Origin: a virus
Length of the DNA stretch: 20,317 nt
Direction: 5' to 3' (one strand)
UHGV virus genome: UHGV-1756682
Made by a program: the position numbers and the translations under genes. The notes below the pieces were generated by a model. That model worked only from the letters and a program-made list of their open reading frames with translations. It was not told where the DNA came from and made no database searches. Each line of letters opens with the position of its first letter. Position 1 is the stretch's first letter. This document shows positions 2,660-17,292 of the stretch, piece after piece.

Positions 2660-2744
2660 CTTTCTCCTGTTCTTTGTGCTGATTGAGCATTTTGTTCATC
2701 TGACGAATGAATTCTTCGTCTGACCAGTTATCTGTAAAACTCAT
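2637..2744 (-). CDS. small acidic hypothetical protein (35 aa)
   Basis: Hand-translated ORF MSFTDNWSDEEFIRQMNKMLNQHKEQEKDDDSDSE. ATG 2742-2744 overlaps the cIII-like stop (ATGA coupling). Not in track (<60 aa). Confidence 0.3.
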   Translation of the reverse strand: MSFTDNWSDEEFIRQMNKMLNQHKEQEKDDDSDSE

Positions 2745-2911
2745 GGACGGCCTTGTTGTTTCAAAATATCCCAAAGCTTTTCGAGCAAACTTTTCGTTCT
2801 TGGTTGTTTAAAGTCTGCTCCGGTTAAAATGTTTTTTCGTGAATGCTGTACCGATAAAATCGGGTTGAAAGGGCGAACCGATGCCGCCCCTGCAATAGCG
2901 AACTGTTGCAT
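2741..2911 (-). CDS. cIII: CIII-like regulator (lambda CIII family, protects CII from FtsH)
   Basis: 56-aa product MQQFAIAGAASV...KSLLEKLWDILKQQGRP resembles lambda CIII (MQYAIAG...LLERITRKLRDGWKRLIDILNQPGVP, from memory). ATG 2909-2911 with AAGGAG 6 nt upstream. The longer track ORF 2741..3016 would span an intrinsic terminator, so the internal start is preferred. Confidence 0.6.
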   Translation of the reverse strand: MQQFAIAGAASVRPFNPILSVQHSRKNILTGADFKQPRTKSLLEKLWDILKQQGRP

Positions 2912-2976
2912 AGGATGCTCCTTCTGTTTGATTGCATAACGAAAACGCCTCGAGTGAAGCGTTATTGGTATGCATA

Positions 2977-3001
2977 TAAAAAAGCCCTCACACTGGAGGG
3001 C
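2977..3001 (-). terminator. rho-independent terminator on the leftward transcript
   Basis: Minus-strand sense reads GCCCTC-CAGTGT-GAGGGC followed by TTTTTTT: a 6-bp GC-rich stem (plus 2984-2989 and 2996-3001) and a 7-T tract (plus 2977-2983 as A). Confidence 0.7.
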
Positions 3002-3105
3002 AAAGAAGATTTCCAATAATCAGAACAAGTCGGCTCCTGTTTAGTTACGAGCGACATTGCTCCGTGTATTCACTCGTTGGAATGAATACACAGTGCTTCT
3101 CTGTG

Positions 3106-3303
3106 CTAAATAATTAAATCATATTCTGATTTTGTTAGTTTATAAGTACCTCCTCTGGTGTAATATGCAAATCTGTCTTTGCTTCCATCAGAATTGTATA
3201 CCCATCCACCAAATGGAAAGATAGTGTCTATTTCTCCAATATCTTTTTCACAACTAAATGTCTTTCCATTTTTAGTTGAATATGCCTTTCCAACTGTCAA
3301 CAT
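3106..3303 (-). CDS. small hypothetical protein (65 aa), AT-rich moron-like gene
   Basis: Track ORF; ATG 3301-3303 with AGAGG 5 nt upstream. DNA is visibly AT-richer than the flanks (not computed). Bracketed by two terminator-like hairpins. Confidence 0.5.
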   Translation of the reverse strand: MLTVGKAYSTKNGKTFSCEKDIGEIDTIFPFGGWVYNSDGSKDRFAYYTRGGTYKLTKSEYDLII

Positions 3304-3320
3304 CTTCGCCTCTGTTGTTT

Positions 3321-3350
3321 ATGACAAAAATGAAGGCCGACTATGCGGCC
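3321..3350 (-). terminator. tL1-like terminator candidate after the N-proximal gene
   Basis: Minus-strand sense GGCCG-CATAGT-CGGCC followed by TTCATTTTTGTCAT (stem plus 3335-3339 and 3346-3350). The stop codon of the 207-aa gene lies in the loop. Confidence 0.5.
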
Positions 3351-3964
3351 TCGGAAGGAAGTCCAATCATCTTATTCAAATCTTCTACCCGTAAAGCAGG
3401 AAGTGCTGTACTTGCTTTATCTGCTTCTTTTGGTAGCAACTCTTTGCTTTCAGGCCAAACTTCAATAAGTCGCTTAACTGTTGTGACTGAGTTCAAAGCA
3501 GCCCATACATTTGATTCGATATCCTTTTTCTTGGCTTCAAGTTTTTGTTGCAATGCGCAGATTTCATCAAACCTTTTTGTTATTTCGTGTTCTGCGTCAA
3601 ACATGCATTTATCTTTTTCTGGGGTGGGTAGCAATATATCTTCGCCGTTGCCGTCTTTCCCATATGAATACCAGCCAACCCTTCTGCCAGATACAGTCAG
3701 ATAAATTGAAGTAGAACGAACATCGCATGAGTAAAATGAACATCCCATCTTTTCAAGTTCTTCACTTATAGCTACTAACTTGGATGATAACTGATCCACT
3801 TCCTCAGTTTTCTTTTTCCCGCCAAACGCAACAACTCTGGCGTCAAGTGCAAGCTGATTCTTTAACTTTGTTACTTCTTCAAGTTCAATGAAAACCCCAG
3901 ACTTAATTAAAGCGTTACGAGCGATTTTCTCTTTCATTCTCGTAGTTAAGCGGATTGATGACAT
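3341..3964 (-). CDS. hypothetical protein (207 aa), first gene after N in the PL operon
   Basis: Track ORF 3341..4024; preferred start ATG 3962-3964 with GAGAGG 7 nt upstream. No TM segments seen and no family recognised. Confidence 0.6.
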   Translation of the reverse strand: MSSIRLTTRMKEKIARNALIKSGVFIELEEVTKLKNQLALDARVVAFGGKKKTEEVDQLSSKLVAISEELEKMGCSFYSCDVRSTSIYLTVSGRRVGWYSYGKDGNGEDILLPTPEKDKCMFDAEHEITKRFDEICALQQKLEAKKKDIESNVWAALNSVTTVKRLIEVWPESKELLPKEADKASTALPALRVEDLNKMIGLPSEAA

Positions 3965-3975
3965 ATTAATTCCTC

Positions 3976-4275
3976 TCAAATAAGTGGTTTGCTGCCTAAT
4001 TTCATTTTCTGGCGACCAACACAAGTCACACCAATTTCACTGCGTGGCTTGCGGTAGTAAATACGGTTCTGTTTACGCTCGACTTCTTCTGCCTTCTTGC
4101 AGCGAAGGCTTCCGAGTGATGCTGCTTTGTCTGCTCTGACGCAACCAGAGAGCTTTAGCGCAATTTTTCGCGCCAGTCGCTGCTCTTGCATTGCCTGCTC
4201 ACGTTGAGCCTGTCTGCGTGCTCTGCGGCGATTTCTGGCGTTATCGTCAGCCAGATATGTAATGACTACTGCCAT
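3976..4275 (-). CDS. N: N-type transcription antiterminator
   Basis: C-terminus NRIYYRKPRSEIGVTCVGRQKMKLGSKPLI closely matches lambda N (...TWYSKPGERGITCSGRQKIKGKSIPLI, from memory). N-terminal arginine-rich motif NARNRRRARRQAQREQ. ATG 4273-4275 with GGAGG 5 nt upstream. Confidence 0.85.
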   Translation of the reverse strand: MAVVITYLADDNARNRRRARRQAQREQAMQEQRLARKIALKLSGCVRADKAASLGSLRCKKAEEVERKQNRIYYRKPRSEIGVTCVGRQKMKLGSKPLI

Positions 4276-11068: not shown

Positions 11069-11679
11069 TGGCTAAACCAGCGCGAAGACGATGTAAAAAC
11101 GATGAATGTCGGGAATGGTTTCACCCTGCATTCGCTAATCAGTGGTGGTGCTCTCCAGAGTGTGGAACAAAGATAGCACTCGAACGACGAAGCAAACAGC
11201 GCAAAAAAGCGGAAAAAGCAGCAGAGAAGAAACGACGACGAGAGGAGCAGAAACAGAAAGATAAACTGAAGATTCGAAAACTCGCCTTAAAGCCCCGCAG
11301 TTACTGGATTAAACAAGCCCAACAAGCCGTAAACGCCTTCATCAGAGAAAGAGACCGCGACTTACCATGTATCTCGTGCGGAACGCTCACGTCTGCTCAG
11401 TGGGATGCCGGACATTACCGGACAACTGCTGCGGCACCTCAACTCCGATTTGATGAACGCAATATTCACAAGCAATGCGTGGTGTGCAACCAGCACAAAA
11501 GCGGAAATCTCGTTCCGTATCGCGTCGAACTGATTAGCCGCATCGGGCAGGAAGCAGTAGACGAAATCGAATCAAACCATAACCGCCATCGCTGGACTGT
11601 CGAAGAGTGCAAGGCGATCAAGGAAGAGTACCAACAGAAACTTAAAAAACTGCGAAATAGCAGAAGTGAGGCTGCATGA
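11068..11679 (+). CDS. ninG: NinG/Rap-like recombination protein
   Basis: 203-aa ORF with Cys clusters ([34 protein letters not shown]) and basic linker, as in lambda NinG. Confidence 0.85.
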
Positions 11680-12545
11680 CGTTCTCAGTAAAAACCATTC
11701 CAGACATGCTCGTTGAAGCATATGGAAACCAGACAGAAGTAGCACGCAGACTGAAATGTAGTCGCGTTACGGTCAGAAAATACGTTGATGATAATACGTT
11801 GATGATAAAGACGGGAAAATGCACGCCATCGTCAACGACGTTCTCATGGTTCATCGCGGATGGAGTGAAAGAGATGCGCTATTACGAAAAAATTGATGGC
11901 AGCAAATACCGAAATATTTGGGTAGTTGGCGATCTGCACGGATGCTACACGAACCTGATGAAAAAACTGGAGACGATAGGATTCGACACCAAAAAAGACC
12001 TGCTTATCTCGGTTGGCGATTTGGCTGATCGTGGTGCAGAGAACGTTGAATGCCTGGAATTAATCACATTCCCCTGGTTCAAAGCTGTACGTGGAAACCA
12101 TGAGCACATGATGATTGATGGCTTATCAGAGCGTGGAAACGTCAATCACTGGCTGCTTAATGGCGGTGGCTGGTTCTTTAATCTCGATTACGACAAAGAA
12201 ATTCTGGCTAAAGCTCTTGCCCATAAAGCAGATGAACTTCCGTTAATCATCGAGCTGGTGAGCAAAGATAAAAAATATGTCATTTGCCACGCCGATTATC
12301 CTTGTAACGAATACGAGTTTGGAAAGCCAGTTGATCATCAGCAGGTAATCTGGAACCGCGAACGACTCAGCAACTCACAAGACGGGATCGTGAAAGAAAT
12401 CAAAGGCGCGGACACGTTCATCTTTGGTCATACGCCAGCAGTTAAACCACTCAAATTTGCCAACCAGATGTATATCGATACCGGCGCAGTGTTCTGCGGA
12501 AACCTCACATTGATTCAGGTACAGGGAGAAGGCGCGTGGGCATAA
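11676..12545 (+). CDS. ninI: NinH-NinI fusion ORF; C-terminal 224 aa is a NinI-type Ser/Thr protein phosphatase
   Basis: N-terminal 37 aa match lambda NinH; from [24 protein letters not shown]...GNHEHMM the sequence is a lambda-PPase-like metallophosphatase. The two are joined in one frame by a 14-bp tandem duplication at 11781-11808. NinI keeps its own ATG 11874 with GGAG 8 nt upstream. Confidence 0.75.
11781..11808 (+). repeat. perfect 14-bp tandem duplication (TACGTTGATGATAA x2) inside ninH
   Basis: Read directly: 11781-11794 and 11795-11808 are identical. Confidence 0.9.
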
Positions 12546-13054
12546 GAGAACTAAACCTCACCAAAGAACAGCATGAGTGGCTGAATGGCTGGCTTGAACT
12601 GTGGGGCGCATGGGTTTATTCAGGTCGTCTGGAAAAGCGCATGAGCAGCGTAATAGCGAAGTTCATGGAGAGCGTAGAGCCGGGAAGAGTTATGACAAGG
12701 CCAATGTGTAATGATGATGATGGAATGTTGATTTCTCAGGTCGTCGATTCCGTCATGTACATTGACAAGAAAGCCTTTGGCATCCTCCTCAGCTACTACG
12801 CTCATGGTTCATCTAAGCGAGCAATTGCATCCTACTATCACGCGACTGCAAAGCCACGCAAGATGTGTGGACGTGGTGGCGAGGGATGGAGAAAACCTTC
12901 ACTGGCAACCTGTAGAAACGAAATTGACGACATCCTGAAAGCGTCGTTATTTGTTTTGTACCAGCCAATGCAAAATGCTTTCAAAATGCGTAAACGTGTT
13001 GAGAAAGTTAAGCATGTTGCTGTTAAAAGCCTTGACATGCAATTATCCATTTAG
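12536..13054 (+). CDS. Q: late antiterminator Q (QuuD/phage 82-like type)
   Basis: Position immediately before PR' and the lysis genes. Shares ELWGAW..., CNDDDGM and SYY features with E. coli QuuD as I recall it. GTG start 12536 overlaps the ninI end. Confidence 0.75.
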
Positions 13055-14973: not shown

Positions 14974-15504
14974 ATGAAGTACCCAACAGTTATTGTCAAT
15001 GGTGTGTCCGTTCGTGTTGATGAGGATGGACGCTACAACTTAAACGATCTCCATGCAGCAGCAGTTGCAAATGGAGAGGCTACAGAGTAACAGCGCCCAA
15101 GCCAGTTTTTGCGTAGCGCGCAGATAAAACGCTTCATCAAAGCACTGGAGGCCAAAGTGCAAAAAAGCACTTTGGAACAAATTCAACCACTTAAAATAAT
15201 CAAAGGTGGTGCAGAACCAGGTGTGTGGGGTGTTGAACTTCTGGCAATCAGATATGCAGCATGGATTAAGCCGGAATTTGAAATCGAAGTTTATGAAGTT
15301 TTCAAAACGGTTGTCCGTCTCGGCGTTGGCGCAATGTCCCGTCTGAATAGAATCGATCACATCATCAATACTGAAACCAAAGCGATAAGCCAGTGCGCAA
15401 GACAAATGGCTAAGTGGGGTGTTGGTGGGCGAAAAAGATTGCTTCATGTTGCACGTGAGAGAGCGGCAAATGAAGTGCAAATGTATTTGCCCGGGATGGT
15501 GTGA
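14974..15504 (+). pseudogene. KilA-N domain gene interrupted by an in-frame TAA (ochre) at codon 39
   Basis: From ATG 14974: MKYPTVIVNGVSVRVDEDGRYNLNDLHAAAVANGEATE, then TAA at 15088-15090, then the same frame continues without an ATG through ...GVWGVELLAIRYAAWIKPEFEIEVYEVF... to the stop at 15502-15504. Both halves belong to one KilA-N domain. Confidence 0.6.
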
Positions 15505-15816: not shown

Positions 15817-15956
15817 CATTTGATTTTAGTTTTATTATCTCACCTTAAATATGAGTGAGATTAATACAAAGCTACCTACGAGTAGCTTTTTAATGGCTTG
15901 TACCTTACACGGGATAACTTAACTGATATCCCCACAAGCGGATAAAGAGATTCTCA

Positions 15957-16082
15957 ATGTCCAACATCTACCAAATCACGTTAACCACCCAAACAGGCGA
16001 AACCGTTACGAGCAAGACGTCACGATTTCAGCATGAGTTGGTTAACGGCTTTGTGCCGCTTGTGATCGAGACGGGAGAGTGA
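15957..16082 (+). CDS. small ORF (41 aa), possibly the 5' part of an opal-interrupted 63-codon gene
   Basis: ATG 15957 with AAGAGA 6 nt upstream. After the TGA at 16080-16082 the frame stays open for 21 more codons (LYFSPDNVKRIQFTPELNDEA) to the TGA at 16146-16148. Confidence 0.3.
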   Translation: MSNIYQITLTTQTGETVTSKTSRFQHELVNGFVPLVIETGE

Positions 16083-16212
16083 CTGTATTTCTCTCCCGAC
16101 AATGTGAAGCGCATACAGTTCACGCCAGAATTGAATGATGAAGCGTGATAAGTGGCTATTTTGTGGTATAGGTTTATGCGCTAAAACAATCAATTAGCTC
16201 AGTCAATGATCT

Positions 16213-16737
16213 CTATTGTCCTGCAACTTGTTTAGTGAGTCTTAGGATGATGCTGCCAAGAATAGCTATGAATTTTTCACGATTATTGGCATCTGGACGG
16301 TTAAGATTCAGCTCAATGTCTCCAACTTTTATGCCGAATCTTGCTGAGTTAATGAGATCTTCCTGACCACCTCGGCTAATAAATGTTCGTAATGATTCAA
16401 TTTCTGCGTCAGTTATTTCCGGGTTGTCTATTTGATGAGAGCGAACATTTCTTATTCTATTTAGGCGTTTAAGTTCTGCGACGGAGTGTTCATTTAGGCC
16501 GAGGTTGGCAGCTAGCTGAATTTTTGCGGCATAGGTCATGGTTAAGATTTCACCAAATCCATCAAATAGATTTTGGTTACCTACAGCGGCGCAACAAAAT
16601 GCCTCAATCATTGCTTCTGTAATCAGATGTACTCTTAAAACCAAACCAATATCATCTTCAGTATTTACTAACCTTTCAATTCGTTGCCAAGTTGCTTCGT
16701 TCATTATGAACTTTGATTCAAAAATTTCAGGATTCAT
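16213..16737 (-). CDS. hypothetical protein (174 aa), antisense moron between lysis and packaging genes; HEPN-like R-x4-H motif (speculative)
   Basis: Track ORF on the minus strand. ATG 16735-16737 with AAGGT upstream. Only 27 bp separate its start from the divergent terS start. DNA visibly AT-rich. Contains LNRIRNVRSHQ. Confidence 0.6.
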   Translation of the reverse strand: MNPEIFESKFIMNEATWQRIERLVNTEDDIGLVLRVHLITEAMIEAFCCAAVGNQNLFDGFGEILTMTYAAKIQLAANLGLNEHSVAELKRLNRIRNVRSHQIDNPEITDAEIESLRTFISRGGQEDLINSARFGIKVGDIELNLNRPDANNREKFIAILGSIILRLTKQVAGQ

Positions 16738-16764
16738 TTATTTACCTTATCAGCAGGGGAAAAT

Positions 16765-17292
16765 ATGGCGCTCACTGACAAACAAGAAATGTTCTGTCGC
16801 GAGTACCTCATCGATTTAAACGCCACGCAAGCGGCTATTCGGGCGGGGTACAGCGCAAAAACAGCCAACCGTACTGCGTCCGAAAACATGTCAAAACCTG
16901 ACATACAACTCAGAATCTCCGAATTGAAAGCACAACGCAATGACTCTGTTGGAATAAATGCAGAATATGTACTTAATCGCCTTATTGAAATCGACCAGAT
17001 GGATGTGCTCGACATTCTCCTGCAAAACGGTGAGTTAAAGCCCATTAAAGACTGGCCTAAGGTATGGCGCACAACGTTATCAGGAATGGATGTTGTGGAG
17101 ATGGTATCCGCAGATAGTGCAGCACTCCTGAAGAAAATCAAATGGCCTGATAAGGTTAAAAACCTCGAACTTCTTGGTAAGCATGTTTCTGTTCAGGCGT
17201 TTAAAGAACAAGCTTCTCACGAACTAACAGGCAAAGACGGCGGCGCAATCCAGATTGAAACATCACCGATGAGCACTCTATTCGGAAAATGA
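16765..17292 (+). CDS. terminase small subunit
   Basis: MALTDKQEMFCREYLIDLNATQAAIRAGYSAKTANRTASENMSKPDIQLRISELKAQR is a typical terS HTH N-terminus. Directly precedes terL with an ATGA overlap. Confidence 0.85.
   Translation: MALTDKQEMFCREYLIDLNATQAAIRAGYSAKTANRTASENMSKPDIQLRISELKAQRNDSVGINAEYVLNRLIEIDQMDVLDILLQNGELKPIKDWPKVWRTTLSGMDVVEMVSADSAALLKKIKWPDKVKNLELLGKHVSVQAFKEQASHELTGKDGGAIQIETSPMSTLFGK

Follow-up and report, generated by a model that had tools for sequence, protein, structure and literature searches.

A minus-strand gene between the lysis and terminase genes

The DNA analyzed here is a 20,317-nucleotide stretch of UHGV virus genome UHGV-1756682 (the whole stretch is referred to below as the window) and is a lambdoid, P22-like E. 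coli prophage. It encodes RecT, the CI repressor, O, DnaB, and Q (12536-13054) and, downstream of Q and all on the plus strand, holin, endolysin, spanin, KilA-N, a 68-amino-acid (68-aa) open reading frame (ORF), terS (Terminase_2), and terL (Terminase_3). Between the 68-aa ORF and terS lies a gene on the opposite strand, the subject of this report, whose 174-aa product is a predicted HEPN protein and a distant homologue of the phage-sensing nuclease HepS. The gene and the features closest to it are listed below.

16213..16737, minus strand: coding sequence of the HEPN protein, 174 aa, ATG start; PGAP product WP_001067622.1, "hypothetical protein"; matches phrog_5483; distant HepS-like homologue
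16435..16452, minus strand: codons of the predicted catalytic motif R96-N97-V98-R99-S100-H101 (Rx4H with a polar N after R), read from the sequence and from invariance in the family
16615..16617, minus strand: codon of E41, the upstream acidic residue of the predicted HEPN active site; invariant in the family alignment and aligned with the Glu of HepS "LIHEN"
16738..16764, no strand: divergent spacer of 27 bp carrying both ribosome-binding sites, read from the sequence
16765..17292, plus strand: terS (Terminase_2; Pfam E = 1e-39), the divergent neighbor, with its ATG at 16765

The original prediction, made from the letters of this DNA, had described an antisense, AT-rich gene about 27 bp from the divergent terS start that was the only minus-strand gene of the late region, and this description held throughout. 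The ORF begins with ATG, the first start possible past the upstream stop, and the N terminus is kept in all homologues. The spacer measures exactly 27 bp and contains a Shine-Dalgarno sequence for the minus-strand gene (AAGGT, 16744-16748) and one for terS (AGGGG, 16755-16759, plus strand). GC content is 0.385 in the ORF, with 0.291 at third codon positions (GC3), compared to 0.466 for the window and a GC3 of 0.39 to 0.55 for the neighboring genes; only 1% of 525-bp windows are equally AT-rich. The gene is also the only credible one on the minus strand between Q and the terminase genes, as every other minus-strand ORF of 90 aa or more downstream of Q runs antisense inside KilA-N, terS, or terL and was taken as spurious.

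The 174-aa ORF is a real protein-coding gene under purifying selection. Eight full-length homologues with 52 to 87% identity align from M1 without frameshifts, and seven of the eight are 174 aa long. Against orthologues of 72 to 76% protein identity, the proportion of synonymous differences (pS) is saturated (0.77 to 0.86), while that of nonsynonymous differences (pN) is 0.15 to 0.21; it is because of this disparity, together with the constant length of 174 aa, that we regard the gene as real. The ratio of nonsynonymous to synonymous substitution rates (dN/dS) for an 89% identical orthologue is 0.22.

HEPN motif and relationship to HepS

Residues 92 to 102 of the protein read LNRIRNVRSHQ, which the original prediction had matched to the HEPN R-x4-6-H signature while warning that such short motifs arise by chance. 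The warning was apt: the bare R-x4-6-H motif is present in 49% of shuffles of the 174-aa protein and so does not exceed chance. The longer form RN-x3-H occurs in 1.9% of shuffles, versus 139 of 143 full-length family representatives, and the match to the signature is borne out by the invariance of the motif and by the fold and profile homology described below. An exhaustive profile search over 1.84 billion representatives (E up to 0.001) gathered 190 family clusters, mostly of 160 to 210 aa. In an alignment of 94 diverse members (mean column identity, 21%), only E41, R96, N97, and H101 are invariant, with H37 and K72 nearly so. The alignment settles the predicted catalytic arginine as R96 and not R94, which is K in most homologues.

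HEPN active sites are defined by Rx4-6H with a polar residue (N, D, or H) after the R and a second conserved, upstream acidic residue, typically within Ex3[KR], and metal-independent endoribonuclease activity belongs to the description of the superfamily (PMC3710099). The 174-aa protein has R96-x4-H101, the polar N97 directly after the arginine, and the upstream acidic residue E41, in a predicted all-alpha helical bundle of the HEPN type; the K/R of Ex3[KR] is absent, position 45 being E. Among protein families, it matches phrog_5483 of PHROGs, a family of unknown function (E = 2.4e-49), and in Pfam only DUF6548 at a subthreshold E value of 0.029. Across the 94 members, HEPN families account for most of the weak Pfam matches (HEPN_RiboL-PSP in 17 of 94, Abi_2, DUF4145, HEPN_Cthe2314, and HEPN_Apea). 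With the Abi_2 profile of Abi2/AbiD/AbiF (PF07751), the 174-aa protein has no match and 6 of the 94 members match weakly (best E = 0.0031).

HepS (STM14_3211) is a single HEPN protein of the Salmonella Typhimurium prophage Gifsy-1 (Sargen et al., Nature 2026; PMC13043305). The hidden Markov model (HMM) and structure searches by which the original prediction proposed to check the HEPN assignment favored it and singled out HepS. AlphaFold2 gave a predicted local distance difference test score (pLDDT) of 82.8 with an 8-sequence alignment and, with the 94-sequence alignment, a pLDDT of 93.8 and a predicted template modeling score (pTM) of 0.90, with all five models agreeing. The top four Foldseek matches of the predicted HEPN fold were the four HepS chains (PDB entries 9oij and 9oik). 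By sequence, the 94-member profile matched HepS residues 25 to 132 with an E value of 5.8e-15, and the single family members P0099 and P0119 matched HepS at 1.4e-6 and 5e-6; the narrow 8-sequence profile gave a borderline match centered exactly on the motif (HMM E = 0.049; hhalign 1.1e-4, 57% probability). R96, N97, and H101 align with HepS R100, N101, and H105, and E41 aligns with the glutamate of "LIHEN." As read from the alignment, the conserved I103, F58, and L79 correspond to HepS I107, a switch residue, and to F66 and L83 of the tetramer interface; this mapping assumes that the PDB chain index equals the published residue number plus 2, which holds for the R and the H. When the HepS core was used as the seed of a homology search, three partial Salmonella fragments were all that came back, and a 55-aa HepS fragment had no match in the phage collection. 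Because no reciprocal HepS-family profile could be built from three fragments, we relied on the matches of the family profile and of single members to the PDB chains. On these data, the HEPN fold and the relationship to HepS are near certain.

Two members of the family deserve separate mention. More than 1000 contigs, those of laboratory strains with phi80 remnants among them, carry the phi80 member (P0023 cluster; ACB02449.1 in E. coli DH10B). One source labels it "DUF4145 domain-containing," DUF4145 being a family of the HEPN clan, and common cloning strains may thus express a HepS-like nuclease (phi80 gp52). In the other, an 89% identical orthologue from Enterobacteriaceae bacterium ATCC 29904 (IMGVR_UViG_2648501357_000002, our P0009; L011, 7286-7303), the codon for R96 is a stop (AGA to TGA) and that for H101 encodes Tyr (CAT to TAT). 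These two single-base changes fall on both catalytic codons of a gene otherwise under purifying selection; they hint that the activity is costly and suggest selection in that lineage to switch the nuclease off, although as a single case they are anecdotal.

Cargo slot and antisense placement

Relatives of the gene were recovered in 4 genome loci and 42 viral-contig loci, in addition to Salmonella phage FSL SP-016 and phi80, and the ORF was called in 47 loci. The original prediction proposed a survey of this position in related prophages, and across the 47 loci the gene indeed lies antisense between lysis and packaging genes: 348 of 384 flanking ORFs of at least 100 aa (about 91%) are on the opposite strand. 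Recurrent neighbors on the convergent side are spanin, endolysin, holin, Q, and KilA-N, and those on the divergent side are terS, HNH, and portal or, alternatively, a 111-aa protein, an N15 gp59-like protein, and a glycosyltransferase-like protein. All contexts are phage, and no same-strand neighbor recurs across the 47 loci, so the HEPN gene stands alone. Three E. coli prophages with different genes at this position, T28R, TUM12357, and PK6, delimit the slot.

15899..16764, no strand: cargo segment that varies between the window and prophage T28R, whose flanks are the same; homology on the left stops at 15898
16128..16212, minus strand: cassette-specific 3' flank of the HEPN gene; TUM12357 does not share it, its homology to the window stopping at 16127 (BLAST breakpoints)
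T28R (L050, 1996-2544), minus strand: slot occupant, an unrelated 182-aa protein, antisense, no Pfam match
TUM12357 (L051, 2851-3069), minus strand: slot occupant, a 72-aa protein, antisense, no Pfam match
PK6 (L052, 1261-2979): slot occupants, unrelated and likewise antisense, a YodC-family protein, an IS3 element, and a DUF6953 protein

On the right side, homology to the window resumes at 16765 in T28R, 16764 in TUM12357, and 16760 in PK6, and these breakpoints place the right-hand recombination boundary of the slot at the terS ATG. The occupants in T28R, TUM12357, and PK6 are candidate cargo or defense genes; we considered the T28R 182-aa protein as a divergent allele of the HEPN gene and rejected this on a BLASTP E value of 7.2. 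Among 5,426 complete E. coli genomes, only 2 contain the HEPN gene itself; parts of the 1.9-kb region including terS, by contrast, match in 850. The original prediction had called the gene a horizontally acquired moron in a cargo slot. Its variable presence between shared flanks and its atypical composition both fit a moron, and the slot is clearly polymorphic, its contents being exchanged among E. coli prophages; the idea of horizontal acquisition nevertheless has to be qualified. In the closest orthologues (Mixta, Enterobacter, and Kluyvera-type contigs), homology spans the HEPN gene and terS together at about 70 to 85% DNA identity, and since the two genes diverged together, their pairing in that lineage is old and not the product of a recent insertion.

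In lambdoid and P22-like late operons, Q-dependent read-through from PR' passes through the lysis genes into the packaging genes. Since this is established biology for such phages, late transcripts are expected to run antisense through the HEPN gene. That this transcription silences the gene would be in keeping with its conserved antisense orientation and with the precedent of Tha, discussed below.

Several further observations concern the slot. A palindromic hairpin, AAAGCTAC-N6-GTAGCTTT (15868-15889), followed by a T-rich stretch on the plus strand, comes directly after the 68-aa ORF and precedes the T28R left breakpoint (15898) by about 10 bp; it was not flagged by the terminator scan and may be a weak or bidirectional terminator marking the cargo edge. 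Between this hairpin and the HEPN gene is a 41-aa ORF with a plausible ribosome-binding site (15957-16082, plus strand). The segment 15875-16127 is 77% identical in TUM12357, where the 41-aa frame stops at codon 17, which makes coding by this ORF doubtful. A GC-rich hairpin without a U-tract, CGGGAGAG-N11-CTCTCCCG (16072-16098), overlaps the end of the ORF.

In the siphovirus carriers, the HEPN gene is one gene away from, and divergent to, a gene for a free-standing protein of about 250 aa described as "similar to N15 gp59" (2695-3468, minus strand, in the FSL SP-016 locus L001; 71-799, minus strand, in the phi80 locus L002, where it is gp49; and 22 related viral loci). These proteins match Pfam Phage_Tail_Tip (E = 1.7e-13 for FSL SP-016; E = 5.7e-5 for phi80, profile positions 74 to 106) and fn3. 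In lambda J, the Phage_Tail_Tip domain covers residues 845 to 972 and thereby spans the HepS trigger peptide at 902 to 933. Only the Pfam profile links the gp59-like protein to lambda J, as pairwise BLAST between the two was not significant (E = 0.41). The association with the HEPN gene could be coincidental cargo coresidence or functional; since the HEPN gene is present in only three phage records, N15-type gp59 proteins probably also occur without it.

The surrounding prophage was examined as well. Its terS-terL junction is 96 to 99% identical to those of HK620, Sf6, and CUS-3, and strains EC931 and SW4848 carry the same DNA at 99.8% identity. The EC931 prophage is flanked by ybhC and ybhB, and the genes at its end are those for ejection proteins, Arc, and the tailspike. 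That copy (NZ_CP049118.1, 4201192-4219365; L003) has decayed heavily: it has IS5 and IS1 insertions, its holin and excisionase genes are partial, and it lacks the whole immunity-to-Q region. Its HEPN gene is intact and 99.8% identical, which fits the retention of a useful gene. Within the window, the KilA-N gene (14974-15504, plus strand) has a premature stop at codon 39 (CAG to TAG, 15088-15090) relative to an intact 176-aa homologue in L010. A TTG-initiated remnant of 131 aa (15109-15504) is still open, and this copy is probably a pseudogene. The other strongly AT-rich stretch of the window (approximately 2700-3700, GC down to 0.37), near RecT in the early-left region, contains a gene (3341-4024, minus strand) whose 227-aa product matches Nmad5 ("nucleotide modification associated domain 5") over the full length of the domain (E = 6.6e-71); it may be another accessory or conflict-related cargo gene. 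A 289-aa ORF (11676-12545, plus strand) matches NinH over residues 1 to 40 and calcineurin-like phosphoesterase over residues 80 to 254 and is either a NinH-phosphatase fusion or a first-start-codon artifact. Scanning the window for Rfam families and tRNAs gave no matches.

Predicted function, rival explanations, and known systems

HepS, described in January 2026, unites two activities in one small HEPN protein, which both senses a phage structural protein and kills the cell via tRNA cleavage. It is constitutively expressed, forms an inactive tetramer, and is nontoxic on its own even when overexpressed (PMC13043305). Its trigger is a 32-residue segment (902 to 933) of the siphovirus tail-tip protein J, in which F924 is key; the segment binds the N- and C-terminal tails of HepS by forming a beta-sheet (S13, D15, S202, and T203), and two composite R100/H105 sites open as a result (PMC13043305). 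Activated HepS cleaves the anticodon loops of tRNA-Thr and some other tRNAs, leading to abortive infection, and both R100 and H105 are needed for RNA cleavage; Gifsy-1 escapes self-killing through a nontriggering J variant (PMC13043305). The authors listed 393 stand-alone homologues, from Bacillaceae to Enterobacteriaceae, often prophage borne and without partner genes, using a selection rule of stand-alone proteins of <250 aa with no extra domains (PMC13043305).

The 174-aa protein is probably an active RNase, and its role is probably, with rather less assurance, an anti-phage one. We favor, with moderate confidence, the full reading that the protein is a solo HEPN nuclease of the HepS-like kind that acts by abortive infection, that its gene is antisense cargo of a P22-like prophage in the slot between lysis genes and terS, and that it responds to a different trigger. 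By analogy with HepS, lysogens would produce the nuclease in the form of an inactive oligomer. A late-made protein of an infecting phage would bind the oligomer and open composite R/H active sites between protomers, and the activated enzyme would cut RNA, probably tRNA anticodon loops. Translation would then halt, and the infected cell would be sacrificed before the invader finished its cycle. The antisense placement in the late operon would lower new synthesis when the carrier prophage turned lytic. Because the trigger-binding parts of HepS have no counterpart here, a trigger other than that of HepS is expected, and possibly another RNA target as well.

A number of points weigh against this reading, whose case is drawn wholly from sequence, predicted structure, and analogy. 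Identity to HepS over aligned residues is only 18% (17 to 20%), and the protein is about 36 aa shorter than HepS (about 210 aa). Significant alignments end at HepS residues 24 to 35 on the N-terminal side and 128 to 133 on the C-terminal side, so that, judged by alignment extents, S13, D15, S202, and T203 fall outside the match; given this and the shorter length, the sensing mechanism may not carry over. HepS K71 (a tRNA contact) and K78 (tetramer interface) map to M67 and Q74 and are not conserved. The second-best structural match is MtlR/YggD, a largely noncatalytic HEPN family. NCBIfam returned nothing, and PADLOC-DB v2.0.0 (2023), a library older than HepS and Tha, returned no families at E values of up to 10.

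The expression signals are likewise unfavorable. Because the 27-bp spacer is too short, a promoter must lie antisense within the 5' part of terS, where the original prediction had placed it. A scan of the antisense strand of terS with 16- to 18-nucleotide spacers detected no sigma-70-like site, a relaxed scan of the minus strand at 16738-17000 with the same spacers detected none reaching 8 of 12, and the promoter-like sites that were flagged all lie inside the HEPN ORF, downstream of its ATG. One weak candidate was noted by eye and escaped the tool since its 15-nucleotide spacer is outside the allowed 16 to 18; conservation of the site is uninformative because it lies within conserved terS coding sequence.

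16868..16894, minus strand: weak candidate promoter, by eye; -35 TTGACA at 16894-16889, 15-nucleotide spacer, -10 TACGGT at 16873-16868

No intrinsic terminator was found by scanning 3' of the gene, where the region 16040-16215 folds stably (z = -3.06), including the hairpin at 16072-16098. Finally, antisense transcription leaves in place the protein already made in the lysogen and alone would not prevent self-targeting. Since silencing new synthesis spares existing protein, the carrier phage must still lack the trigger; it is a plausible speculation that a podovirus carrier does so if the trigger is a siphovirus protein.

Several other explanations were weighed. That the ORF is a chance frame or a decaying remnant in an AT-rich spacer has on its side the label "hypothetical" in every database, the lack of a detected promoter or terminator, and the rarity of the gene in E. 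coli; saturated pS with low pN, a length kept without frameshifts in eight orthologues down to 52% identity, 190 clusters with an invariant catalytic set, and a very confidently predicted fold have effectively refuted it. A noncatalytic HEPN regulator like MtlR/YggD, which would bind an RNA or protein partner to regulate phage or host genes, is most improbable. MtlR-type proteins keep the motif in only about 60% of cases, whereas R96, N97, H101, and E41 are invariant in our 94 sequences; HepS scores clearly higher in structure and is also matched by sequence. The gene, moreover, sits in prophage cargo and not in a mannitol operon, and the regulator was rejected on the invariant motif and this context.

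We also think it improbable that the protein is a prophage-stabilizing or host-stress toxin, that is, an RNase of the HEPN type working in addiction or persistence. Neither an MNT nor any other candidate antitoxin is present: both neighbors are on the opposite strand, none recurs on the same strand in the 47 loci, and the HEPN gene fills its cassette with only 27 bp upstream, so a HEPN-MNT toxin was rejected for want of a partner gene. HepS, the best match, is nontoxic on overexpression and requires a phage trigger (PMC13043305). An RNase or exclusion factor that benefits the phage itself, by trimming host or competitor RNAs at establishment, by excluding superinfecting phages without cell death, or by counterdefense, appears to us just as improbable. 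It would account for the long stay beside packaging genes and the codivergence with terS, the wider family is common in phage contigs, and the 174-aa protein has no assigned trigger or target. The antisense orientation to about 91% of flanking ORFs argues against expression in the lytic cycle, however, and the closest characterized relative, HepS, acts by abortive infection.

The preferred reading, a HepS-like abortive-infection nuclease, can be carried further into a speculative proposal that we hold unlikely in its entirety. The protein would be a HepS-type nuclease with a swapped sensor, in which the catalytic and oligomerization core is kept and another phage protein is recognized, the antisense embedding acts as an autoimmunity switch, and a siphovirus tail-tip-like protein is the partner. 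The swapped sensor might be formed by the protein's own C-terminal half (approximately residues 125 to 174, with a beta-hairpin at 135 to 144) together with its N terminus. Late transcription of the carrier would collide with and shut off nuclease synthesis, unlike the nontriggering J variant used against HepS. In the phi80 and FSL SP-016 group, the linked protein with the J tail-tip domain could be a decoy or tuner of a tail-tip-sensing nuclease.

Prophage-borne HepS homologues were already known as a class; what is described here is a subfamily that is unannotated in every source consulted and differs in its sensor region. Its approximately 190 clusters are still "hypothetical protein" in RefSeq, without a significant Pfam, NCBIfam, or PADLOC match, and kinship with HepS gives a testable function to an unnamed PHROG (phrog_5483). 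As the catalytic core is kept and the HepS sensor termini are not, the family is a natural series in which to study how solo HEPN sensors encode trigger specificity. The antisense late-operon position in 47 loci likewise provides a clean system for asking whether late transcription shields a prophage from its own abortive-infection gene.

Among known phages, phi80 gp52 (YP_007947985.1; ACB02449.1 in DH10B) and SP016_00215 of Salmonella phage FSL SP-016 belong to the same family (30% and 58% identity, respectively), occupy the same slot past the lysis cassette antisense to the late genes, and are both annotated as "hypothetical." Both phages are siphoviruses with an N15 gp59-like protein bearing the lambda-J tail-tip domain, which the window lacks. 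Literature searches, which did not extend to the homologue tables of the HepS paper, found no mention of WP_001067622, phrog_5483, or the phi80 or SP-016 accessions. MtlR/YggD differs in its mannitol-operon context, its regulatory role, and the frequent loss of its motif, none of which applies to the 174-aa protein. PrrC and RloC are HEPN anticodon nucleases that cut tRNA anticodon loops during phage infection. They and the HEPN-MNT toxins share the HEPN Rx4-6H active site with the 174-aa protein, which is a single small domain with no MNT antitoxin, ATPase/ABC domain, or link to a restriction system. In position, the gene recalls lambda bor, a moron expressed in the lysogen that is oriented antisense to the late operon and lies, in the lambdoid genome, between lysis genes and packaging end. 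Bor is an outer membrane lipoprotein for serum resistance, unrelated to the HEPN gene in sequence and function, and bor is thus a positional analogue only.

The closest functional precedents are two prophage-encoded HEPN RNase defenses. Tha-1 and Tha-2 with Ith, of S. aureus prophages, are one (Rostol et al., Nat Microbiol 2024; PMC11087260). Tha is a nonspecific RNase of the lysogeny module; a structural (tail) protein from the infecting phage activates it, and antisense transcription, acting via polymerase collisions, switches the defense between lysogenic and lytic states (PMC11087260). Tha requires the inhibitor Ith, encoded by an antisense gene, whereas here no inhibitor gene is evident and the defense gene is itself antisense; we saw no sequence relationship to Tha, although no dedicated comparison was made. 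HepS is the other. The protein described here differs from it in its shorter length, in the absence of a match to the trigger-binding terminal segments, and in the nonconserved equivalents of K71 and K78, and its carrier is a P22-like podovirus without a J tail tip, to which self-avoidance by a J variant is therefore inapplicable. Like HepS, however, it is a small, stand-alone protein (174 aa, no other Pfam or NCBIfam domain), carried by a prophage without a partner gene, in which the RX4-6H motif is kept.

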